Shown here one piece after another: positions 4,003-56,524 of a stretch of DNA of 64,000 nucleotides. The notes beneath the pieces are model-generated. The model was not told the origin of the DNA. It saw nothing but the letters and a program-made list of their open reading frames with translations, and searched no databases. The DNA is from a virus (taxonomy: Duplodnaviria > Heunggongvirae > Uroviricota > Caudoviricetes), in the IMG/VR virus record IMGVR_UViG_3300012286_000299, positions 109,277 through 173,276 of that record. One strand, given 5' to 3'. Numbering within the stretch: position 1 is the stretch's first letter; every line of letters starts with the position of its first letter. The position numbers and the translations under genes were made by a program.

Positions 4003-4953
4003 ATGAAAAACATACACATAATACCAACTACAAAGTCAAATAAGTTGTATAAAAATCTATTAACAGATAAATTATTTATTTTAGAAAATTCATTTATGGA
4101 TGTTTCTGAATGTAATAGAGAATATCAAAACATCTACATCACTTCTGATGAAGAAATTAAAGAAGGAGATTATGGATTAATAGTAAATGAAGTATTATCA
4201 TATAGTCAAATGCACAAAAAATGGGGTATACCACAAGGTAAAAAAATCATTCTAACAACAGACCAAGACTTAATCAAAGATGGTGTACAACCTATTGATG
4301 ATGAGTTTTTAGAATGGTTTGTTAATAATCCAAGTTGTGAAAGTGTTGAGATTGAAGAATTATGTGGTGGATGTGGCAGTAATGATGGGGACTGTTGGAG
4401 AAGTAAAGAGTGTAATAAAGGGTATTATAAAAATAAATACAAAATAATCATTTCAAAAAAAGAACCTAAACAAGACATAAACACTTGTAAAAACTTTGAT
4501 AGAGAAATTGGTTGTGATTTAGCAGATTGTCTTTGTGAAAAAGAAGAACCTACTCAAGAACTAGCTAAAACAGAAATTGATTGGTCAGGTTTTCCAAAAT
4601 CAACACAAGAACAAGTTGGTTTTACTGAACCAAATATCATTGATGAATGGTTAGATAAAAATGGTAGTCCAGAAATTGCTAAACAAGTTGATGAAGAAGC
4701 AAAAGAGTTATGTGAACAAGAAACACTTGAAGAAGCTTTGGAAAGATTATCTTTAACAGATACTAAAAAATTAAGTATATTTTTAGATGGAATGAGGTAT
4801 CAACAAGAAAGAAGTTATAGTGAGGAAGAAGTTAAAATAATGTACAGAAGTTTATGGACTCCGAAGGATTTTGGGTTTTATAGTTCTTATGAAATGGAAA
4901 GTAATTTTGAAGACGATTTTAATTTATGGTTTGAACAATTTAAAAAGAAATAA
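4003..4953 (+). CDS. hypothetical protein, paralog A, with a Cys-rich insert
   Basis: 316-aa ORF behind the promoter motif at about 3955-3975. Its N-terminal 60 aa and the blocks KKIILTTDQDL, DEFLEWF and EEPTQEL.KTEIDWSG are shared with ORF 5706..6194. It carries an extra CGGCGSNDGDCWRSKEC cluster. Confidence 0.55.
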   Translation: MKNIHIIPTTKSNKLYKNLLTDKLFILENSFMDVSECNREYQNIYITSDEEIKEGDYGLIVNEVLSYSQMHKKWGIPQGKKIILTTDQDLIKDGVQPIDDEFLEWFVNNPSCESVEIEELCGGCGSNDGDCWRSKECNKGYYKNKYKIIISKKEPKQDINTCKNFDREIGCDLADCLCEKEEPTQELAKTEIDWSGFPKSTQEQVGFTEPNIIDEWLDKNGSPEIAKQVDEEAKELCEQETLEEALERLSLTDTKKLSIFLDGMRYQQERSYSEEEVKIMYRSLWTPKDFGFYSSYEMESNFEDDFNLWFEQFKKK

Positions 4954-6273: not shown

Positions 6274-7509
6274 ATGGAAAAGAAAAACAACATAGATTCT
6301 CAGTATATTAAGCTACTAGAGGATATTTTAGAAAATGGTATTAAAAAACAAACAAGAAATGGTGAAACTATTTCAGTATTCGGAAGACAAATACGTCACG
6401 ATATGAAAGACGGTTTTCCGTTGCTTACAACCAAGAAAATGCCGTTCAAAACAATCGTAACAGAACTTCTTTGGTTCTTACGAGGTGATACCAATATTAA
6501 GTATTTGGTTGATAATAATTGTCATATTTGGGATGGTGATGCTTATAAGAATTATATAAATACCGCACCACCTACATTAGATGGGAAGTATTTATCACAA
6601 CCAGAATTTATTCATTGGATAAAAACAGATGATGAGTTTGCTAAGAAGTGGGGTGAGTTAGGTCCAATTTACGGTAAGCAATGGAGAGATATTCCTGTAA
6701 TAAAAGATGGAGATGTAGAAGGTCATAAGATATTAAGTAGTATAGACCAAATCCAAAACCTAATCAACGACCTTAAAACAAATCCAGACTCAAGACGATT
6801 AATGGTTAATGCTTGGAATGTTGGAGAATTAGACCAAATGGTTCTTCCACCTTGTCATTATGGATTTCAAGTTTATACTAGAGAGTTGACTAAACAGGAA
6901 CGTTGGATGGCTTATTGTAATAAATGTAATGAATTAAAAACAGAATCAATTATAGGTTCTACCGATGATAAAGTAATGGAAAGTTATTATCAAGAATATA
7001 ACATACCAACACGAGCAATCTCTTTAATGTGGAATCAACGTTCAGTGGATACATTCTTAGGTTTACCATTTAATATTGCTTCTTATGGATTGTTGTTGGA
7101 AATCATTGCTGAAATCGTTAACATGGTTCCTGACCAATTGATTGGTAATCTTGGTGATACACACTTGTATTCAAATCATATTGAACAAGCAAAAGAACAG
7201 ATTGGAAGAGAGCTTAATGAAGATGAGAGATATGAATTAGTAACCCAGCAAATGAGTAAACTAAGAGCGATCAGAGATGAAGATTACATTAATTACAATA
7301 TTCCAACTAGAACAAGACAACCTTATTCTTTACCTAAAGTAAGAATCAATACTGAATTCTGGAACCCTGGTACAGAAGATGGATGTGGAATGGGACCAGG
7401 AACTTATACAAAAGATATAGGTGCTCTTGTAGAAGGAATGGAAGTAAATGATTTTCAAATTGAGGATTATCAATCACATCCAACAATCAAAGCACCCTTA
7501 TCAAATTAA
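6274..7509 (+). CDS. thymidylate synthase (ThyA) family enzyme with two large insertions (TS, or dUMP hydroxymethylase-type)
   Basis: ThyA motifs are present: LWFLRGDTN, GPIYGKQWR, SRRLMVNAWNVGEL..LPPCH (active-site Cys), QRSVDTFLGLPFNIASY (Asn, hence dUMP-type) and GDTHLYSNHIEQAKEQ, with a ThyA-like C-terminus DFQIEDYQSHPTIKA. It is 411 aa against about 265 aa for ThyA, because of inserts of about 45 aa and about 60 aa. Confidence 0.75.
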   Translation: MEKKNNIDSQYIKLLEDILENGIKKQTRNGETISVFGRQIRHDMKDGFPLLTTKKMPFKTIVTELLWFLRGDTNIKYLVDNNCHIWDGDAYKNYINTAPPTLDGKYLSQPEFIHWIKTDDEFAKKWGELGPIYGKQWRDIPVIKDGDVEGHKILSSIDQIQNLINDLKTNPDSRRLMVNAWNVGELDQMVLPPCHYGFQVYTRELTKQERWMAYCNKCNELKTESIIGSTDDKVMESYYQEYNIPTRAISLMWNQRSVDTFLGLPFNIASYGLLLEIIAEIVNMVPDQLIGNLGDTHLYSNHIEQAKEQIGRELNEDERYELVTQQMSKLRAIRDEDYINYNIPTRTRQPYSLPKVRINTEFWNPGTEDGCGMGPGTYTKDIGALVEGMEVNDFQIEDYQSHPTIKAPLSN

Positions 7510-9405: not shown

Positions 9406-9882
9406 ATGGGAAAATATCAATCAACAAAATTATTCGAGAACTACTCAGTAGCTATCAGACAATGGAAAGCACAACACTCACATTGTCAATTACTTCACGG
9501 ATATGCTTTAGAATTTAAAGTATGGTTTGAATCAATCGAACCTTTAGAAGAAAATCAATTAGACGAAATGAACTGGATCATGGACTATGGTGGGTTTAAA
9601 GAACAACCACAAGGAAACGGTTTAAAAGCATGGATGGACTATATGTGGGATCATACTCTACTAATCGAGAAAGATGATCCGCAATTAGAAACATTCCAAT
9701 ACATGCAAGAATTAGGTTTGTGTCATTTAAGAGTTATGGATAAGATTGGAGCTGAATCAGCTGCTAAACTAGTCTTCGATAAATTCAATGATGTAATGTC
9801 TAAGAATGGAGGAGGTAGAGTAAAAGTAGTAAAAGTAGAGTGCTGGGAAGCTCCTAAGAATTCATCAATTTATGGAGAGTAA
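9406..9882 (+). CDS. queD: 6-carboxy-5,6,7,8-tetrahydropterin synthase-like (QueD/PTPS family)
   Basis: About 158 aa with a C-x4-HGY..E.K motif (HCQLLHGYALEFKVWFE) resembling the PTPS/QueD Cys-x-His-Gly-His zinc site. Context between QueE-like and FolE genes. Confidence 0.5.
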   Translation: MGKYQSTKLFENYSVAIRQWKAQHSHCQLLHGYALEFKVWFESIEPLEENQLDEMNWIMDYGGFKEQPQGNGLKAWMDYMWDHTLLIEKDDPQLETFQYMQELGLCHLRVMDKIGAESAAKLVFDKFNDVMSKNGGGRVKVVKVECWEAPKNSSIYGE

Positions 9883-10747
9883 ATTTCTACAAGAGAATGG
9901 TTTTTTCGATGATAATACAGGAAAAATATCTCTAGCAGATAAATTAGAAGGTAAAACAAAACAGTATATGAAATTAAAAAGAATAGAAGATTACAACAAA
10001 ATACTGCCGATAGTAGAAGTCTATACAGCAGTACAATCAGAAGGAAGTAGAGCAGGATATCCTACAGTAGTAATTCGAACAAGTGGCTGTACTCACCGCT
10101 GCTGGTTCGGTGAAGGAGGTTGGTGTGATAGTCCATACACATCAATTCATCCAGAGAAAGGGAAATATTCATTCCAGAATATAATTGAAGCATACGACAG
10201 AAATCCTCACATCACAGAGATGATGTTAACTGGAGGATCACCAACAATGCATCCAGCATTAGTAAACGAATTAACACATTTTGCACATGAAAGAGGAATT
10301 TTTATTACTATGGAAACAGAGGGATCACATTACTTGGAAACAGACTTTCCGATTAATTTACTTAGCATTAGCCCTAAGTTTTCAAATTCAATTCCAGCAT
10401 TGGGAACCCGCACTCCAGGCGGTGACATCGTTGATGAAAAGATGGTTAAACAGCATAACAAACTTAGATTAAATTATGATGCAATGTCTAAGTCAATTGC
10501 GTATCATTCTGATTATCACCTGAAACCAGTGTGGGATGGAGAGGATGAAGGAGCATTGAAAGAGATTATGGCTTGCATTAAAATTCTAGATATTCCAGAA
10601 GACAAAGTTTGGTTCATGCCAGCAGGAGATTCAAGAGAGGCTTTATTCAAATCATATCCTAAAATGTTTGATTGGGTAAGAGATAATGGATATAGATTGA
10701 CTTGGAGACCACACATCATTGCATTTGAAGATAAAAGAGAAGTATAA
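9872..10747 (+). CDS. queE: radical-SAM 7-carboxy-7-deazaguanine synthase-like (QueE)
   Basis: Cys triad in SGCTHRCWFGEGGWCDSPY (non-canonical spacing, as known for some QueE), a glycine-rich SAM motif MLTGGSPTMHP, and a position adjacent to queD/folE. Confidence 0.6.
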   Translation: MESKFLQENGFFDDNTGKISLADKLEGKTKQYMKLKRIEDYNKILPIVEVYTAVQSEGSRAGYPTVVIRTSGCTHRCWFGEGGWCDSPYTSIHPEKGKYSFQNIIEAYDRNPHITEMMLTGGSPTMHPALVNELTHFAHERGIFITMETEGSHYLETDFPINLLSISPKFSNSIPALGTRTPGGDIVDEKMVKQHNKLRLNYDAMSKSIAYHSDYHLKPVWDGEDEGALKEIMACIKILDIPEDKVWFMPAGDSREALFKSYPKMFDWVRDNGYRLTWRPHIIAFEDKREV

Positions 10748-10803
10748 TATCATTTGGATATTAAAATAGAATTTATTACATTTACCTATTAAAAAAATTA
10801 TAA

Positions 10804-11499
10804 ATGACAGAAAATAGAAAAAAAGTCCACAACGATTTAGAAGTGGTACAAGTGGGATTTGCTAATGGTGTAGCACCTGGATTTCCCCTAAATGAGATTG
10901 AAAAACAAGGTATGATTGAGCAGGCTGCTGAAGCCTATGGTCAGTTTTTAACAGCATTAGGTTGTGATTGGAAAAATGATCCTAATAGTGCTGATACACC
11001 AAGACGTGTAGCTAAAGCCTATGTTAACGATCTATGGAAAGGTAGATATACTCCAATGTCTGAAATTACTTCATTCCCAAGTGATGGTTATGATGGGATT
11101 GTGATTGAAAGAAATATCCCTTTAACATCAATGTGTTCACATCACCACCAAACAATTGGAGGGGTAGTTCATATTGGGTATGTGGTAGGTGAAAATGGTA
11201 GAGTAATTGGTTTATCTAAATTAAACCGAATTGTAGAGCATTTTGGGCGTAGAGGTGCTATTCAAGAACAATTAACCTCTGCTATTCATCAAGCTGTAGA
11301 TAAAATTTGTGAAAATAATAGAGGTGTAATAGTTTCTATTGTTGGTACTCACAATTGCGTTTCTTGTAGAGGTGTTAAGCATCAAGGTGCTTCAATGATT
11401 ACAACTAAAGCATCAGGTGTTTTTATGGAGAATGGAAACTTAGCAAGAGAAGAATTCTTTGATTCAATTAAAATTAATAATGGTAATCATCCAGTATAA
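10804..11499 (+). CDS. folE: GTP cyclohydrolase I
   Basis: SMCSHHHQTIGGVVHIGYV matches the FolE zinc-site/active-site block (SMCEHH...VHIAY) in a 231-aa protein. Confidence 0.8.
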   Translation: MTENRKKVHNDLEVVQVGFANGVAPGFPLNEIEKQGMIEQAAEAYGQFLTALGCDWKNDPNSADTPRRVAKAYVNDLWKGRYTPMSEITSFPSDGYDGIVIERNIPLTSMCSHHHQTIGGVVHIGYVVGENGRVIGLSKLNRIVEHFGRRGAIQEQLTSAIHQAVDKICENNRGVIVSIVGTHNCVSCRGVKHQGASMITTKASGVFMENGNLAREEFFDSIKINNGNHPV

Positions 11500-13026: not shown

Positions 13027-13041
13027 TTTAAACTAGAAAAC

Positions 13042-13464
13042 ATGACAGCAATACAAGTATTAGGATTAATAGCATTTATAATAGCATTATCAGGTGTATT
13101 AGGGTTCTTATTTCAAGCCGGAAACGACGAAGAAGAAGAAGTTACATTTACTACTCCTGAGTATACTAAAGAAGAACTAGAAAATATTAAAGCTGCTGAA
13201 GCAGAATATAATAAACCTGTAGTAGCCGAAGAACTTGAAGTTACAGAACCTGAATTTGTAGCAAAAGGACTTAGTAGTACACCAGTAGCTCCGGAATTTC
13301 CAAACATAGGAAAGGATCTTACAAAAGTATTCCCACCAGATGCAACTATTAACACAGAAGAAATAGTAGAAACTAAATTGAAAAAGGTAAAAGAACCTAA
13401 ATCAGAGTTTCCAATTGATAAACCAAAGAAAAAAAGAAAATATTATCCTAAAAAAGCAAAATAA
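13042..13464 (+). CDS. membrane-anchored acidic protein
   Basis: N-terminal transmembrane helix, then a low-complexity E/P/K-rich region ending KKKRKYYPKKAK. Confidence 0.4.
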   Translation: MTAIQVLGLIAFIIALSGVLGFLFQAGNDEEEEVTFTTPEYTKEELENIKAAEAEYNKPVVAEELEVTEPEFVAKGLSSTPVAPEFPNIGKDLTKVFPPDATINTEEIVETKLKKVKEPKSEFPIDKPKKKRKYYPKKAK

Positions 13465-42328: not shown

Positions 42329-42925
42329 ATGAAATTCAAATCACAACAAGCTTTTAATTATCACGAATTAAAAGGGTTATATCCTTACATTAAAGGTACA
42401 AAAGGTTTTATAGCAGGAGGATGCTTCAAAGACATATTTGCAGGTAACAAAGCTAGAGACATTGATGTTTTCTTTGAAAATGAAAGCGACTATAAAAAGG
42501 CTGTAAAACTTTATAAAACCAAAAATAATTTTAAGAAAATATACTCAAACGACAACTGTACAGGGTATAGAGATCTTAAAAACAATGTTGGAGTTGAATT
42601 AGTTAAATCAATATTTGGAACACCTGAAGCGGTGTTGGAGCAATTCGATTTTACTATTGTAAAAGCAGCTTACTATAACCCACCTACAGACGAGCAAGAA
42701 ATTCAATTCATATTTCACCCTGACTTTTTTGAGCATTTGCTTCTTAAAAGATTAGTTTTAGATGATGCTATACCTAGAGCTGTAGCAACACTTAACAGAA
42801 GTTGGAAATATGCTGCTTATGGATTTGGGTTGTGTAGAGAAAGTAAAGTTAAATTATCAAATGAGATTATCAACAAAGGAGTTGTTGATGACATTAATGG
42901 AGATTTATATTTTGGATATGACTAA
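42329..42925 (+). CDS. hypothetical protein
   Basis: 198-aa ORF. Confidence 0.45.
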   Translation: MKFKSQQAFNYHELKGLYPYIKGTKGFIAGGCFKDIFAGNKARDIDVFFENESDYKKAVKLYKTKNNFKKIYSNDNCTGYRDLKNNVGVELVKSIFGTPEAVLEQFDFTIVKAAYYNPPTDEQEIQFIFHPDFFEHLLLKRLVLDDAIPRAVATLNRSWKYAAYGFGLCRESKVKLSNEIINKGVVDDINGDLYFGYD

Positions 42926-43442: not shown

Positions 43443-44180
43443 ATGCCAAAATTATTTAAAGTAGGAGGATGTGTTAGAGATAGGTTGCTAGGAGTAAAGA
43501 CAAAAGATATTGACTTTGTATTTGTTCTAGATGATCTAAACAAAACAGTTGAAGAAGGATTTCAAGAGATGAAATCTTGGATGGAGAATGAAGGATTTAC
43601 AATATTCCTATCAGTCCCTGAAATGTACACAATCAGAGCTAAATTCCCACCTGACCATAAATTCGCTAAATTAGATGCTGACTTTGTAATGGCTCGTAAA
43701 GAAACTGGTTATGAAGAAGGAACAAGACGTCCTGTTTTAGAATTAGGAACTCTTGAAGATGATTTGGTTCGTAGAGACTTCACAGTTAATGCTATGGCTG
43801 AGGATGAGGATGGAAACATTATTGATATGTTCAATGGATTAGAAGATTTAGATTTTATGTTACTTCGTACTCCATTAGATCCAAAAGATACATTCATGGA
43901 TGATCCTTTGAGAATCTTACGTGCATTGAGATTTGTAATTACAAAAGGATTTACAATGTACGTAGATGTTTGGGAAGCAATACAACAACCACACATCCTA
44001 GCCAAACTAACTCAAACTGTAAGCAGTGAGAGAATAAGAGAAGAGGTATTAAAGATGATGGCTGTAGATACTCCAAGAACAATTCGATTGTTAATAGATA
44101 TTGATAATGAAGTGCCAGGATTTTTAGAAGTAGTATTCAAAGAAGGATTGTGGTTAAAACCAACATTTGAAAAAATATAG
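43443..44180 (+). CDS. tRNA nucleotidyltransferase / poly(A) polymerase family head-domain protein (minimal CCA-adding-type enzyme)
   Basis: N-terminal VGGCVRDRLLGVKTKDIDFVFV matches the class II nucleotidyltransferase GGxVRDxLLG...DxD signature. 245 aa, so the head/neck region only. Confidence 0.65.
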   Translation: MPKLFKVGGCVRDRLLGVKTKDIDFVFVLDDLNKTVEEGFQEMKSWMENEGFTIFLSVPEMYTIRAKFPPDHKFAKLDADFVMARKETGYEEGTRRPVLELGTLEDDLVRRDFTVNAMAEDEDGNIIDMFNGLEDLDFMLLRTPLDPKDTFMDDPLRILRALRFVITKGFTMYVDVWEAIQQPHILAKLTQTVSSERIREEVLKMMAVDTPRTIRLLIDIDNEVPGFLEVVFKEGLWLKPTFEKI

Positions 44181-45037: not shown

Positions 45038-45490
45038 ATGAAATTAAAAGAAAAGTTATTTGCTGACTTCATCACAGCAATGAAAGCTAAAGATGAAGTA
45101 GCTAAATCTGCCTTAAGTAGTGTTAAAGCCAAAATTATTGAAGCTGAAAAAGCAGCTGGTAATTGGGAACCTACAGATAGTGAAGTGTTAAAGATTATAA
45201 TCAAAGCTATTAAACAACGTGAAGAATCACAAGCTATATTTTTTAGTTCAGGCAGGATTCAACTTTCAATAGACGAAGCCAATGAAGCATCTGTACTGAG
45301 AAATTATTTACCCCAACAAATGACTGAAGTTGAAATTGAAAATGCAATACGCACAATTTCATCTGATATAATTGGTGTTGTTAATAATATGCAGGCCCTG
45401 AAAGGTAAAGTTATTGGTGAATTCAATAAACAATATAATGGGCAAGCTGATATAAATTTGGTAAAGCAAATTGTAGAGCGTATATTATGA
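45038..45490 (+). CDS. GatB/YqeY-domain protein
   Basis: AMKAKDEVAKSALSSVKAKI...SDSEVLKIIIKAIKQREES...GR...NYLPQQMTEVEIENAI matches the YqeY (COG1610) pattern. Confidence 0.6.
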   Translation: MKLKEKLFADFITAMKAKDEVAKSALSSVKAKIIEAEKAAGNWEPTDSEVLKIIIKAIKQREESQAIFFSSGRIQLSIDEANEASVLRNYLPQQMTEVEIENAIRTISSDIIGVVNNMQALKGKVIGEFNKQYNGQADINLVKQIVERIL

Positions 45491-45668: not shown

Positions 45669-46790
45669 ATGACAAAATTTCCAGCGTTGTATAAACGTTC
45701 AAACAGTAAAGACCACATTAATGAGTGGCAAATCGAAGTTGATGGTTGTATGTTTAGAACTACAACTGGGTTTGTAGGTATGAAAATGTTTACAGGCGAT
45801 TGGACAGTATGTTCTCCTAAAAATATTGGGAAGAAAAACGGAACCACTGCAGAACAACAAGCATTAGCTGAAGCTCAAGCGCTATGGCAAAAACGTAAAG
45901 ATTTAGGTTATTGGGAGGACGTTAATGACTGTGATAAGAAAGTATTCTTCCAACCTATGTTGGCACAAGACTATGATAAACGTAAAGGTAAAATCAAATA
46001 CCCTATCTTATCACAACCTAAATTAGATGGTGTTAGATGTGTCATTAAATCAGACGGAATGTGGTCTCGTAATGGTAAAGAAATTATATCTGCACCACAT
46101 ATATTTGAGAATCTAAAGCATATCTTCGAGAGTCAACCTGACCTAGTGTTAGACGGTGAGTTATATACTTCAGATAGGAGCGTTGATTTTAACACAATTA
46201 TTTCATGTGTTAGAAAGACAAAACCAACACAAGATGATTTAGATATGTCACAACAATACATAGAGTATTGGATGTATGATATAGTAAATGATAAGGATCA
46301 AGGTTATGAAGAGCGATATGAAGATTTAATTGACTTGATGTTGAATTACAAATTAGATACTTTATTGTTTCATGTAGTAGCTACTTATGAACTGCCTGAT
46401 GAAAAACACGTTATTGACCAGTTAAGTCATTACCTTGAACAAGGTTTTGAAGGGCAAATACTACGTGAATGTAATTCGTTTTATGAAAATAAACGCTCAA
46501 ATGGTTTATTAAAGCATAAAATATTTCATGATGAAGAATTTAAAATTCTAGCTATCAATGAAGGTGTAGGTAAATTTGCTAATAAAGCTGCTACAATGTC
46601 GTTTCAAACATCAATTGGTGTTAAATTTGATGCTACTATTAATGGTACTATGGCTTATTTAGAAGAAATTTGGGCTAATAAAGACAATTTAATAGGTAAG
46701 TTAGCAACTGTTAAGTATTTTGAAGAAACTACTGATGGTTCACTACGTTTTCCTAAAGTAATTAATATTGATAGAGCTAGTTATGAATAA
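45669..46790 (+). CDS. ATP-dependent DNA ligase
   Basis: Motif I SQPKLDGVRC (KxDGxR adenylation lysine); 373 aa. Confidence 0.75.
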   Translation: MTKFPALYKRSNSKDHINEWQIEVDGCMFRTTTGFVGMKMFTGDWTVCSPKNIGKKNGTTAEQQALAEAQALWQKRKDLGYWEDVNDCDKKVFFQPMLAQDYDKRKGKIKYPILSQPKLDGVRCVIKSDGMWSRNGKEIISAPHIFENLKHIFESQPDLVLDGELYTSDRSVDFNTIISCVRKTKPTQDDLDMSQQYIEYWMYDIVNDKDQGYEERYEDLIDLMLNYKLDTLLFHVVATYELPDEKHVIDQLSHYLEQGFEGQILRECNSFYENKRSNGLLKHKIFHDEEFKILAINEGVGKFANKAATMSFQTSIGVKFDATINGTMAYLEEIWANKDNLIGKLATVKYFEETTDGSLRFPKVINIDRASYE

Positions 46791-53997: not shown

Positions 53998-54396
53998 ATG
54001 AAAAGAGTAATAGTTAAGTACAAAGATAGTGAACAAACACTAATTTATCACATTGTTAGTTTTAAAAACGACAAACGTCAAATTCTAGTTGAGGATGTAA
54101 AAGAATTCTTAGCAAACCCAAGAGTAGAATCATACGAAATCATAGACATGTCAGGGCGATCATCGAATTCTGATGGTGAAGGTAAAGTATACGAATCGAA
54201 GTACGAACGGGAAAATAATAACTTACCTAAAATAATCGCTAATGAGGTAATACAAGTTGCTACATCATTAAAAGGTTGTACTAAGGAAACCATTGATAAA
54301 TGGAACCAACATCTTGATTTTGACTTACATGAAAAGTTAAATGGTGAATACGGTTTTACAGGCGCCAAAAGATTATATAATATCTTTGGATTGTAA
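53998..54396 (+). CDS. hypothetical protein
   Basis: 132-aa ORF. Confidence 0.4.
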   Translation: MKRVIVKYKDSEQTLIYHIVSFKNDKRQILVEDVKEFLANPRVESYEIIDMSGRSSNSDGEGKVYESKYERENNNLPKIIANEVIQVATSLKGCTKETIDKWNQHLDFDLHEKLNGEYGFTGAKRLYNIFGL

Positions 54397-54436: not shown

Positions 54437-54550
54437 TATGAAAGATTTTGCAGATTGCGGGTTTTATTTTGCAATGGGATGTTGTCTCTTTGCTTGTGGT
54501 GTAATGGTGAGTGCACTAATTTTTAGAATGTTTAAAGATTTATTTAGATA
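54437..54550 (+). CDS. hypothetical small membrane peptide
   Basis: About 38 aa (MKDFADCGFYFAMGCCLFACGVMVSALIF...) behind a promoter motif. Coordinates approximate. Confidence 0.25.
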
Positions 54551-54552
54551 AT

Positions 54553-54669
54553 TATGAGTTTAGTAAGTAATTGTTGTGGTGCGTATTCAGAATATGCTGA
54601 GGACATAGACATTTGTCCTGATTGTCTTGAACATTGTGAATTCGAAGATGATGAAGAAGATGAAGATTA
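54553..54669 (+). CDS. hypothetical small Cys-rich acidic peptide
   Basis: About 38 aa, CCGAY...CPDCLEHCEFEDDEEDED. Coordinates approximate. Confidence 0.25.
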
Positions 54670-54729
54670 AATAAATTTGTTTTATTAAAATTTACTTAGT
54701 ATATTAAATCATAATTAAAATAATAAGTT

Positions 54730-54933
54730 ATGTTTAAAACGGAAAAAGCAAGAGATTTATTTAGTCAATTATTGGATGTTAATTGGAAAATTGACAATAA
54801 AGAATATCGTTCACCTGAAGAACGAATTGAATTGAATGCCCAATACCGTAAGTTATATGATGAACTTATGTTAGAGATGGGTACAGAAGAGTTCACCAAA
54901 TTCATGGAAATGGGTCACAAATTGTTTAATTAA
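54730..54933 (+). CDS. hypothetical protein
   Basis: 67-aa ORF; promoter motif upstream. Confidence 0.4.
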   Translation: MFKTEKARDLFSQLLDVNWKIDNKEYRSPEERIELNAQYRKLYDELMLEMGTEEFTKFMEMGHKLFN

Positions 54934-54943
54934 AATAAAGGTT

Positions 54944-55132
54944 ATGATATTACAGGTAATTAACACCAAAAAGGAAAAACACAATCAAATTCGTACAACT
55001 AAGGAAACTTTATTTCAAGACCTTAAAACTCAAGGTTGGGCAGTCCAAGATTGTAAAGTAACAGAACTAAATGAGGCTTTAGTAAACACTGTATATCGTG
55101 GTACTGATGGTAAAAATTCATTAAAACGTTAA
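54944..55132 (+). CDS. hypothetical protein
   Basis: 62-aa ORF. Confidence 0.4.
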   Translation: MILQVINTKKEKHNQIRTTKETLFQDLKTQGWAVQDCKVTELNEALVNTVYRGTDGKNSLKR

Positions 55133-55135
55133 AAT

Positions 55136-55288
55136 ATGGTAGTATTATTAGCACAACTTGTATTAATGGGTATAAATTTATATCTAGCAAAAGTACAAAC
55201 AGAACAGGGTAGAAATCCAGCAATACAATATTTTGTTGCAGGAATGTGTTTTATGGGTGCAATTGATGCACTTATTAAATTACTTTAG
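55136..55288 (+). CDS. hypothetical small membrane protein
   Basis: 50-aa ORF with two hydrophobic segments. Confidence 0.3.
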   Translation: MVVLLAQLVLMGINLYLAKVQTEQGRNPAIQYFVAGMCFMGAIDALIKLL

Positions 55289-55297
55289 TAAGGCAAT

Positions 55298-55367
55298 AGT
55301 CAGGTAGTGTAATGGTAGCACCCGGAGGTCACACTTCTAGAACAGGTTCGAATCCTGTCCTGACTAC
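55298..55367 (+). tRNA. tRNA-like gene 1 (anticodon not confidently assigned; possibly CAC)
   Basis: Perfect 7-bp acceptor stem AGTCAGG/CCTGACT, D-arm GTGT-AATGGTA-GCAC with a GG D-loop, and a canonical T-arm ACAGG-TTCGAAT-CCTGT. The anticodon stem is irregular by hand folding. Confidence 0.5.
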
Positions 55368-55482
55368 AAAGTAATGCCTGGCGAAGTTGTCAAAACCGGG
55401 ATGAAGCAGAATTGTAAATAAAACACGCGAGTGTATAATGACAGATGGGATACACAAAAGTTACAATTAGAATTACTTAAAC

Positions 55483-55582
55483 AGTCAGGTGGCACTGAAG
55501 GTAGAGTGCTCCATAAAATAAGCAATAAGTGGTAATATGGTACCAATACTTATAGCCTTAGGTTCGAATCCTGTCCTGACTA
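55483..55582 (+). tRNA. tRNA-like gene 2, about 100 nt (long variable arm or intervening hairpin)
   Basis: Same acceptor strands AGTCAGG/CCTGACT, D-arm GCAC-TGAAGGTAGA-GTGC, T-arm TTAGG-TTCGAAT-CCTGT, and an internal long hairpin TAAGTGGTA-ATATGG-TACCAATACTTA. Confidence 0.4.
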
Positions 55583-55638
55583 CTATAACAATATAAGTGT
55601 TTCATAACCACTTATTATTTTTAATTATGCCCGTAATT

Positions 55639-55700
55639 AGCCCCGAAAGGGGCTATTACTTTATTTGGAGGGTATAAATTAAATTCGTATATTTATTACA
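55639..55700 (+). promoter_or_regulatory. terminator hairpin (agcccc-gaaa-ggggct) followed by promoter-like gagggtataaattaaattcgtatattt
   Basis: GC-rich stem-loop plus the conserved motif downstream of the tRNA-like genes. Confidence 0.5.
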
Positions 55701-56206: not shown

Positions 56207-56524
56207 ATGAATTTAGATTTTGACTTAATTAGAAGTGAGGTATTAGTAGCACGTAAGGAAGATAGTCCTAACGATTGCCCTTCCACAAATGTTGAAGAAC
56301 TTTCTGAAAATATAAAATATTTACTTGAAGAGCTTCCTATAATGAATTTATCTAATATTGAAGACCTCGATGAGGATGAATTCAGTTTATTTGATGATTA
56401 CTTTGAGGATGAACAATTCTGGATATTGATTTGGAAAGGCAGAACATTCTTTGTAGATACTCAAGGGTATTCCTATGCAAGATATTGTGGTGAATTAATT
56501 AATTATAATGAAGTTGAGGGTTAA
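56207..56524 (+). CDS. hypothetical acidic protein
   Basis: 105-aa ORF. Confidence 0.45.
   Translation: MNLDFDLIRSEVLVARKEDSPNDCPSTNVEELSENIKYLLEELPIMNLSNIEDLDEDEFSLFDDYFEDEQFWILIWKGRTFFVDTQGYSYARYCGELINYNEVEG

Follow-up and report, generated by a model that had tools for sequence, protein, structure and literature searches.

Two tandem tRNA-like elements of a phage genome belong to a widespread family with variable inserts and may encode non-decoding scaffold RNAs

The stretch of DNA analysed here (the window; 64,000 nucleotides (nt), positions 109,277 to 173,276 of the caudoviricete IMG/VR record IMGVR_UViG_3300012286_000299) has a guanine–cytosine (GC) content of 29.7%, carries every gene on the + strand and encodes PolB, GroEL, thymidylate synthase, ligase and many glycosyltransferases, marking it as part of a large phage genome. 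Two tRNA-like elements, element 1 and element 2, lie in tandem at the end of a unit that comprises, in order, promoter-like motifs, small open reading frames (ORFs), element 1, a spacer, element 2, an AT-rich hairpin and a terminator (Table 1). No ordinary tRNA gene was found by ARAGORN in the 64-kb window, and a megablast search with the 3 kb around the elements against 50,697 phage records gave no match, and hence no close relative.

Both elements possess a 7-bp acceptor stem, a discriminator, a D arm with GG and a T arm with GTTCGAATC, and neither has a 5-bp anticodon stem with a 7-nt loop (U33, purine 37) at the expected position. Both begin with the same 8 nt, AGTCAGGT, and end with the same 23 nt, AGGTTCGAATCCTGTCCTGACTA; a shared 20-mer is present in exactly two copies in the window, against 0.00 expected from 100 dinucleotide shuffles. 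Coordinates, shared ends and folds together confirm the tandem tRNA-like pair with the same acceptor and near-identical T arms that an initial annotation of this DNA had described, and the lengths it gave, 69 and 100 nt, were exact. The middles differ, as it had also observed: element 1 carries a short hairpin and element 2 a 48-nt insert. In the minimum free energy (MFE) fold of element 1, a 6-bp stem with a 3-nt loop stands in place of an anticodon arm (a 4-bp stem at best), and the segment between its D and T arms is 20 nt, versus 22–23 nt normally, without a 5-bp anticodon stem. ARAGORN calls it ‘tRNA-???’ with a 2-nt anticodon, and the Rfam tRNA model (RF00005), whose gathering score is 29, gives it 44.8 bits, passing over the anticodon region as a local end. 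The fold of element 2 (MFE −28.2 kcal/mol, z = −2.35) consists of acceptor, D arm, the long internal hairpin noted previously, and T arm; by inspection its insert might also form a pseudoknot, pairing CCAUA with UAUGG and AUAAGU with ACUUAU. Element 2 received no ARAGORN call and no Rfam match even at E ≤ 10. The initial annotation had envisaged a test in which both elements score below the RF00005 threshold, which does not apply to a pair of which one passes and the other fails. Element 1 is preceded by T (position −1) and element 2 by C, and C follows the discriminator in both.

Table 1. Positions of the elements and of other features of the window
Feature	Position	Strand	Length	Description
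Element 1	55298–55366	+	69 nt	acceptor 55298–55304/55359–55365; D arm 55307–55321 (GUGU/GCAC); hairpin GGAGGU-CAC-ACUUCU at 55324–55338 in the place of the anticodon arm; T arm 55342–55358; discriminator A at 55366
Element 2	55483–55582	+	100 nt	acceptor 55483–55489/55575–55581 (7 bp); D arm 55492–55509 (GCAC/GUGC); insert 55510–55557 with hairpin 55522–55556; T arm 55558–55574 (4 bp); discriminator A at 55582
Promoter-like motif TTTG-N19-CTTCGTATATTAAAGCATAATTAA	54386–54432	+		opens the small-ORF unit that ends in both elements; putative promoter
Second, variant promoter-like motif TTTG-N19-CTTAGTATATTAAATCATAATTAA	54676–54722	+		putative, read from the sequence; precedes ORFs 54730–54933, 54944–55132 and 55136–55288
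ORF50	55136–55288	+	50 aa	hydrophobic; directly 5′ of element 1; missing at this site in the close relative L263
Structured spacer	55367–55482	+	116 nt	between the elements
AT-rich hairpin AUAAGUG..CACUUAU with U-run	55593–55622	+		part of the element 2 trailer; in L263 conserved to about 94%; by inspection
Intrinsic terminator UAGCCCC-GAAA-GGGGCUA with U-rich tail	55638–55655	+		closes the unit; next promoter-like motif near 55660
Class-II nucleotidyltransferase (CCA-adding enzyme/poly(A) polymerase family)	43443–44180	+	245 aa	Pfam PolyA_pol 7.5e-20 and PolyA_pol_RNAbd 7.2e-06
YqeY/GatB-like protein	45038–45490	+		in a cluster with the nucleotidyltransferase gene

The two elements carry the exact ends of a larger family, 5′ AGTCAGG and the 3′ 22-mer GGTTCGAATCCTGTCCTGACTA. 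The 22-mer occurs in at least 120 IMG/VR viral contigs, often in 2–6 copies within a few kb, and its density reaches 7 copies per 5 kb among the IMG/VR matches listed. Among 185,579 species genomes it was present in 18 contigs, all of them from metagenome-assembled genomes (MAGs) and many binned as Bacteroidota, and each of these 18 copies belonged to an insert-bearing element, never to a normal host tRNA. The contigs retrieved from IMG/VR, MAGs and phage records are numbered from L001 upwards, L001–L138 being IMG/VR and MAG contigs. The 158 copies extracted measure 69–182 nt and consist of a constant 5′ arm, AGTCAGGTGGCGGAAT(T)GGTAGACGC (AGTCAGG-TG-GCGG-AAT(T)GGTAGA-CGC), a variable middle and a constant 3′ part, (C)AUACAGGTTCGAATCCTGT-CCTGACT-A. 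As RNA, this chassis has the acceptor AGUCAGG/CCUGACU, the discriminator A and the T arm ACAGG-UUCGAAU-CCUGU, and an insert of 20–135 nt replaces the anticodon and variable arms. The commonest D arm of the family is identical to that of bacterial tRNA-Leu (GUGGCGGAAUUGGUAGACGC); elements 1 and 2 differ from most members in having a D arm that is not of this type.

When whole elements were compared with the phage records by blastn, the 5′ arm matched ordinary tRNA-Leu genes and, separately, the 3′ arm matched Enterococcus phage tRNA-Gln (24 of 25 nt), and nothing else was found. A match in Synechococcus phage S-PM2 was discarded as an ordinary, unannotated tRNA-Leu(TAG). Of the known RNA families, only Rfam tRNA reached threshold in the window and 15 loci. 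Eight further loci retrieved by the D-arm pattern (L141, L155, L169, L181, L187, L193, L245 and L248) have a host-type tRNA-Leu 5′ part (GCGGATGTGGCGGAATTGGTAGACGCGCTAGTTTCAGGT) followed by unrelated sequence; they are probably attachment-site (att) junctions of prophages integrated in tRNA-Leu, and are unrelated to the element family.

The tRNA-like fold is kept at the level of RNA pairing. Compensatory variants of the acceptor include AGTCCTG/CAGGACT, AGCCAAG/CTTGGCT and TGTCAGG/CCTGACA, as well as AGTTAGG/CCTAACT in L252, and the T stem varies correspondingly (ACTGG/CCAGT, AGAGG/CCTCT and ACAAG/CTTGT). Across 119 distinct chassis sequences in a spliced alignment, pairing holds in 96% of cells, and double changes are found in 14 of 16 pairs, a score that none of 500 shuffles matched and that slid controls did not approach either. 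A separate check anchored on the D arm and T loop found 30 non-dominant acceptors with 7 of 7 pairs, versus at most 5 when the partner strand was slid. The nucleotides of the tRNA tertiary core (U8, A14, G18G19, and U48 as the partner of A15) are kept as well.

The flanks of the elements are likewise of tRNA type. A T at position −1 precedes 133 of 167 family copies and 119 of 170 ordinary tRNA genes of the same loci, U(−1) being the nucleotide favoured by bacterial RNase P. C follows the discriminator in 162 of 167 and 170 of 170, respectively, and the commonest trailers, CAA and then CTA, are the same in both groups; the discriminator itself is A in 159 of the 167 copies. Encoding C74 but not the CA after it implies that a CCA-adding enzyme completes the end. 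The 170 ordinary tRNA genes of L001–L138 likewise all encode C, rather than CCA, after the discriminator (CAA, CTA, CAT and others).

Members of the family lack an anticodon arm. A tolerant test, which accepted a 5-bp stem with a 7-nt loop bearing Y32, U33 and R37 and starting anywhere near position 27, was passed by 2 of 141 family members versus 140 of 166 ordinary tRNAs of the same loci. One of the two is plausibly a real tRNA-Lys(UUU): a 71-nt gene on the minus strand of L039 (ARAGORN 13030–13101), with a canonical UUU anticodon arm on the AGTCAGG chassis, so that the chassis also serves at least one apparently real tRNA. On this single chassis ARAGORN places unrelated anticodons (Pro-AGG, Glu-CTC, Ser-AGA, Tyr-ATA, Leu-CAA, Ile, ‘???’, and anticodons of 2 or 4 nt), and the Rfam tRNA model gives some members 37–41 bits by skipping the insert, versus 47–73 bits for ordinary tRNAs. 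Ordinary type-II tRNAs (Leu, Ser, Tyr) of these loci use other acceptor stems. Introns were considered and rejected: deletion of one segment restored a canonical tRNA in 0 of 158 copies, versus 2 of 158 shuffled controls, and a tRNA-Leu split by a group I intron is incompatible with the lack of an Intron_gpI match, with inserts of just 20–135 nt and with exons that rebuild no anticodon arm.

The inserts are highly diverse, 148 of 173 unique elements carrying a type with no detectable relative in the set. Insert types that recur are ~97% identical across unrelated contexts. Thus the core of the element 1 insert, GGAGGTCACACTTC, is identical in L010, L252 and L253, and a 49-nt insert resembling that of element 2 is ~97% identical in L013, L254, L255 and L256, in each case between non-homologous flanks. 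Paired changes are found within inserts too, the stem GTTGAA/TTCAAC of L010 becoming GAGCAA/TTGCTC in L042. Conversely, inserts are replaced at orthologous sites: eight loci have both flanks in common around a gene for a 215-aa protein, with entirely different inserts of 90–160 nt. In L263 and L264, the nearest relatives of the window (85% identical DUF932 protein), the place of ORF50, element 1, the spacer and element 2 is taken by just one element, of 146 nt and with a different insert, and 94% homology between the window and L263 restarts inside the conserved 3′ arm. A search for motifs common to the inserts gave only weak enrichments (TAAGTCC, 7 versus 0.7 expected; AGGTCG, 10 versus 1.7), and extra T-arm-like hairpins were present in 6 of 173.

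As to their surroundings, 146 of 159 copies lie on the same strand as the flanking genes, and some sit among the genes of tRNA arrays or immediately behind a promoter box resembling TAnnTTTG. Genes for GIY-YIG-like (T5orf172) and HNH proteins are among the neighbours. The recurrent 215-aa protein encoded downstream of elements had no Pfam match and matched only a PHROG of unknown function. Recurrent non-coding sequences also adjoin elements (CTGACACGCACGGCAAC..., CAATGAGTAAGAGGTACTCAG..., ...GACGGCTCGGAAAGACGAGC... and CACGTTCCAGG...GATGAGAAACGG; for example in L001/L020/L085, L071/L117/L129/L095, L027/L035/L059/L081 and L075/L097/L098), and are probably further unannotated small RNAs of tRNA and non-coding RNA (ncRNA) islands.

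The AGTCAGG chassis is not the only one of this design. A scan with the tRNA-Leu D arm alone recovered insert-bearing elements with other self-complementary acceptors, including GGTATCG, GCTTTGG, GGATAGG and ATGAGAG, and relatives of the window phage carry more tRNA-like genes devoid of an anticodon, for example with a GNRA-capped stem replacing the anticodon arm. One 183-nt element on the GCTTTGG chassis (L232, an IMGVR_UViG contig) holds a nested tRNA-like unit with its own D and T arms within the insert. A second chassis, GTGCTTG-TGGCGGAATAGGTAGACGC ... GTAGGG-TGCAAAT-CCCTAC-CAAGCAC-A, again combines conserved arms with a variable middle; it is tRNA-Leu-like, has a non-canonical T loop (UGCAAAU), and is missing from the annotation of the cultured Lactobacillus plantarum phages that carry it, which belong to several unrelated families. 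In Sha1 (HQ141411, about 4047–4130; L258, 2501–2584) it is found between rinA and HNH/terminase genes, in ATCC 8014-B2 (JX486088, about 42398–42506; L257, 2501–2609) between two tRNA-Arg genes, and it also occurs in LP65, LpeD, Lenus, phiJL-1 and others. Sha1 contains in addition, at ~2279–2338 of L258, a tRNA-like sequence of ~60 nt with the acceptor ATCGCTG/CGGCGAT and D and T arms; with only ~10 nt at the place of the anticodon arm, it looks by inspection like an ‘armless’ mini tRNA-like gene.

These data support the idea that both elements are members of a widespread phage family of scaffold RNAs that would be matured like tRNAs, would not decode, and would bear variable structured modules, a reading to which we assign a probability of about 0.45. 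Its parts differ in strength: the family identity together with tRNA-type maturation is very probable from the sequence, and action of the payload in trans is a tentative suggestion. Among the options raised by the initial annotation, the evidence favours that of a tRNA-like RNA which is not a real tRNA. According to this proposal, the elements would share transcripts, made from phage promoters, with the small ORFs that precede them, RNase P would cut at the 5′ end (U at −1), and the 3′ end would be trimmed to A73-C74 and completed to CCA, possibly by a phage nucleotidyltransferase. The product would be a stable L-shaped RNA showing the insert at the anticodon position, in which the chassis would supply processing and stability and the insert a specific payload acting in trans on a partner.

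Several points weigh against the scaffold proposal. Every step of maturation is read from sequence signatures, and retrieval by an exact 22-mer overstates how invariant the chassis is. The covariation among the 119 aligned sequences is biased because the finder demanded paired stems; only the anchor-based check is free of this bias, and it is noisy. Inserts do fold better than shuffled sequences, but the effect is modest (mean z = −0.61, p = 3e-13). No excess of antisense complementarity to neighbouring phage sequence was found, the longest matches averaging 8.9 nt versus 8.9 nt after shuffling and reaching at least 12 nt in 3 of 132 versus 47 of 1320. No partner gene recurs either: 336 neighbouring ORFs fell into 267 clusters, and no Pfam family was present in more than 2 of 150 representatives. 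As for placement, many copies begin 5–15 nt after a stop codon and end 13–25 nt before the ATG of diverse small ORFs, and the window elements sit at the 3′ end of an operon, a position that fits a simple stabilising or processing role too.

A further-reaching version of the proposal, which we regard as rather improbable, is that phages keep an exchangeable library of structured RNA modules on one tRNA chassis, with a chassis type per phage group. The AGTCAGG type would then belong to freshwater phages, probably of Bacteroidota, and the GTGCTTG/UGCAAAU type to L. plantarum phages. The chassis would hijack tRNA maturation for excision, CCA capping and stability, and its arms would also allow co-infecting phages to swap modules by recombination. 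An RNA arsenal of aptamers, decoys or sponges would thereby be available in phage–host or phage–phage conflict, of which T4 RNAC would be a lone example.

Placement after stop codons, before start codons or behind TAnnTTTG-like boxes, tRNA-type flanks and the strong co-orientation with flanking genes would all be expected if the chassis were simply tRNA-style punctuation, that is, a processing signal that cuts or stabilises polycistronic phage messenger RNAs, with the insert as filler. This explanation is rather unlikely. Filler would not be expected to stay ~97% identical between unrelated flanks or to have covarying stems, copies are also found inside tRNA arrays that tRNAs already punctuate, and the window elements precede terminators rather than a cistron. 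Inserts of up to ~135 nt and a near-invariant chassis would also be left unexplained.

The replacement of inserts at orthologous sites raises another explanation, in which the primary role is at the DNA level and the 25-nt arms are linkers, or targets of homing endonucleases, for cassette exchange among co-infecting phages. Homology with L263 restarts exactly inside the conserved 3′ arm, the cassette upstream of it having taken the place of the 146-nt element; in L244, ORF50 is located directly downstream of a tRNA-like element, on the opposite side; the eight loci around the 215-aa gene have common flanks and different inserts; and GIY-YIG-like and HNH genes are close by. The T4 tRNA cluster, in which SegB is annotated, offers a precedent. 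By contrast, compensatory changes keep the RNA helices, the flanks match tRNA processing signals, a pure DNA site should not show so strong a strand bias, and the evidence from junctions comes from a single mapped case (window versus L263), the left end of which lies outside the arm. We therefore consider this explanation unlikely, and recombination at the arms is more likely a consequence of their conservation than its purpose.

It is also conceivable, and in our view quite improbable, that the acceptor end is the active part, the elements being aminoacylatable but non-decoding mimics of tRNA-Leu that would serve as amino-acid donors, or as sponges or decoys for leucyl-tRNA synthetase (LeuRS), EF-Tu or tRNA-attacking toxins; the lost anticodon arm would then merely keep the RNA off the ribosome. 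The commonest D arm, the prevailing A discriminator and the kept tertiary core fit such mimicry, and the window encodes both a CCA-adding-type enzyme and a YqeY/GatB-like protein. E. coli LeuRS reportedly ignores the anticodon, and leucylation is said to need neither the anticodon arm nor the variable arm. However, both window elements have A73 but a D arm that is not of tRNA-Leu type, other types of chassis end in C, U or G, the same chassis bears the apparent tRNA-Lys(UUU) of L039, and the discrete, conserved insert types would go unexplained. Punctuation, recombination linkers and leucylatable decoys can each account for some of the observations, and all of them may hold in part.

The two remaining explanations are hardly tenable. 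Genuine decoding would make element 1, for which the initial annotation had given CAC as a possible anticodon, a tRNA-Val(CAC), and element 2 a tRNA with an intervening sequence or an extra-long variable arm, both of which that annotation had allowed. Element 1 does score well on RF00005, and its loop can be written as GUCACAC with U33 and A37, but the 2-nt ARAGORN anticodon, the 6-bp stem with its 3-nt loop, the 20-nt D-to-T segment and the 139 of 141 same-chassis relatives without an anticodon arm contradict this, and a GUG-reading tRNA would presumably be of little use to a phage of 30% GC. Element 2 falls under every tRNA threshold, single deletions rebuild no anticodon arm in it, and Rfam shows no intron. 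Finally, decaying tRNA pseudogenes or 3′ ends duplicated by site-specific integration, of which the initial annotation had brought up the latter, might be suggested by duplicated 3′ halves (typical of att sites) and by copies with a replaced 3′ acceptor strand in L209 and L234, but are largely refuted by the complete 5′ and D arms of both elements, by hundreds of phage copies with a kept fold, compensatory changes, processing flanks and conserved insert types, and by the finding of no host tRNA with this 3′ half among the 185,579 species genomes.

Among known systems, the closest analogue of the elements appears to be T4 RNAC (species 1 RNA, rnaC), which with RNAD is one of the stable small RNAs encoded in that phage's tRNA cluster. 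In RNAC, which is 139 nt long, the canonical T arm CCGGG-UUCGAAU-CCCGG is separated from the 3′ end by 9 nt, and long internal hairpins replace the anticodon arm; it thus resembles the elements in its phage origin, in a T arm beside a 3′ terminal stem and in the absent anticodon arm. Family members, like RNAC, occur among tRNA and ncRNA genes, although the window itself has no ordinary tRNA. The role of RNAC is still unknown after decades (PMC3014915; PMC9697503). Visual comparison revealed no obvious sequence similarity beyond the T loop, the terminal stem of RNAC is imperfect and has no evident tRNA-Leu-type D arm on inspection, and RNAC is a single T4 gene rather than a multi-copy family of one chassis with many inserts.

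Bacterial Y RNAs of the YrlA type, partners of Ro60/Rsr, share with the elements a tRNA-like module with D and T arms, tertiary pairs and unusually invariant stems, and they too occur in phages. YrlA of M. smegmatis is cut by RNase P and receives CCA, and the tRNA fold has been suggested to be protective (PMC4201824). The topology is permuted: in YrlA the two ends of the RNA pair at the anticodon side, as the Ro-binding stem, and it is the ‘acceptor’ that is closed, whereas in the elements the ends pair as the acceptor stem and the anticodon side holds the variable part. No Rfam Y-RNA model matched the elements, and no TROVE/Rsr gene was present among the larger window ORFs, to which the scan was confined. 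The tRNA-like domain of transfer-messenger RNA (tmRNA) likewise keeps the acceptor and T arm, has its anticodon arm replaced by RNA that includes pseudoknots, and is charged independently of an anticodon. Identity with tmRNA was rejected, there being no ARAGORN or Rfam tmRNA call, a U3-A70 instead of a G3-U70 pair, and a full D stem; the elements are also far too short for a tag ORF and four pseudoknots.

Linking small RNAs to a tRNA body is presumably also the design principle of the tRNA-miRNA-encoded RNAs (TMERs) of murine gammaherpesvirus 68 (MHV68), which are viral. In the engineered ‘tRNA scaffold’ of Ponchon and Dardel (a later paper on the approach is PMC3753655), a structured RNA is inserted at the anticodon arm and the tRNA body gives processing and nuclease resistance. 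These systems are man-made or eukaryotic-viral, whereas the elements would be natural, bacterial-viral, multi-copy and diversified. At the DNA level, short conserved intergenic sequences of hyperplastic regions that coincide with mosaic junctions offer another likeness. Such sequences are the promoter/stem-loop DNA motifs between small accessory genes, namely the promoter early stem-loops (PeSLs) that flank mobile cassettes of T4-type phages and the ‘boundary sequences’ of lambdoid phages. They differ from the elements in that they neither fold like a tRNA nor show compensatory changes or flanks of tRNA type.

No account of a phage family of this kind was found in the literature, of which coverage was incomplete, so that this is not proof of novelty; one study of IMG/VR structured RNAs names no more than five motifs that overlap tRNAs. 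Among phage tRNA-like RNAs, the element family is apparently undescribed so far. Annotation of phages by tRNA finders skips these genes or assigns them meaningless anticodons, and counts of ‘phage tRNAs’ and arguments from codon usage may be contaminated by such non-decoding look-alikes. If the scaffold reading is true, a substantial group of small phage RNAs has so far escaped notice, including some in cultured Lactobacillus phages that are open to bench study, and the engineered tRNA scaffold has a natural counterpart. Hundreds of sequences with discrete insert types would also give comparative leverage on the function of RNAC-like stable RNAs of the T4 kind.

Around the elements, the promoter-like motifs near 54386 and 54676 precede five small ORFs. 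The two that head the unit (54438–54551 and 54554–54670) encode a hydrophobic, Cys-rich peptide of 37 aa and a 38-aa peptide with CxxC...CxxC and an acidic tail. The motif TTTG-N19-(C)TTCGTATATTWAAGYATAAT is present in 29 copies on the + strand of the window, each 25–35 nt before an ATG; it is also given as TTTG-N~19-(C)TTCGTATATTWAAGYATAATTAA (sites, for example, at 1757, 3959, 38214, 41686, 54405, 55684, 55898, 57102 ... 63577), and its core, TTCGTATAT, is also found in the element-bearing loci L006, L048 and L117. This motif probably represents the consensus promoter of the phage group.

The spacer between the elements folds into a 5′ hairpin, CCUGG..CCGGG, and a long helix, AAUUGUAA/UUACAAUU, around the hairpin GUGUAU..AUACAC. 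It is ~83% identical to sequence adjoining tRNA-like elements of different types in L091 and L252, and in L252 the pairing of the 8-bp long helix is kept through three double substitutions. It also holds a −10-like box, TGTATAAT, with sigma-70-like hexamers at 55412–55439. It probably represents another structured RNA, or else a leader that is structured and carries this box. The spacer had been described as GC-richer than its surroundings, which is true only mildly (36.2% versus 29.7% for the window), since 12% of all 116-nt windows are equally or more GC-rich.

Among the window ORFs of at least 100 aa, a Shine–Dalgarno (SD)-like 4-mer is present upstream of only 4 of 78, and the consensus leader is A-rich, ending in ...AAAGGTT-ATG. 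Leaders so poor in SD sequences suggest a host without SD-dependent initiation, as in Bacteroidota, and these leaders, the TTTG/TAnnTTT-like promoter boxes, the MAG binning and a DUF2693-FD RNA match at one locus together point to a probable Bacteroidota host. The 245-aa nucleotidyltransferase is a candidate for completing the ...A73-C74 ends, a tie that would connect it to the elements. Its gene forms a cluster with those of the YqeY/GatB-like protein and an ATP-dependent ligase (45669–46790), which may be a module for tRNA end maturation or repair. Four relatives of the nucleotidyltransferase were found, but their flanks end before the site orthologous to that of the elements, and a search for relatives through ORF 56207–56524 gave none.

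Elsewhere in the window, genes for QueD-like (PTPS), radical-SAM (QueE-like, under the Pfam cutoff) and GTP cyclohydrolase I proteins follow one another at 9406–11499 and constitute a 7-deazaguanine (preQ0) pathway, typical of DNA-modifying phages. The thymidylate synthase ORF (6274–7509) encodes 411 aa, of which residues 1–410 match a profile of 335 positions, so that it would contain an insertion of ~130 aa, perhaps an intein, a homing element or an extra domain.

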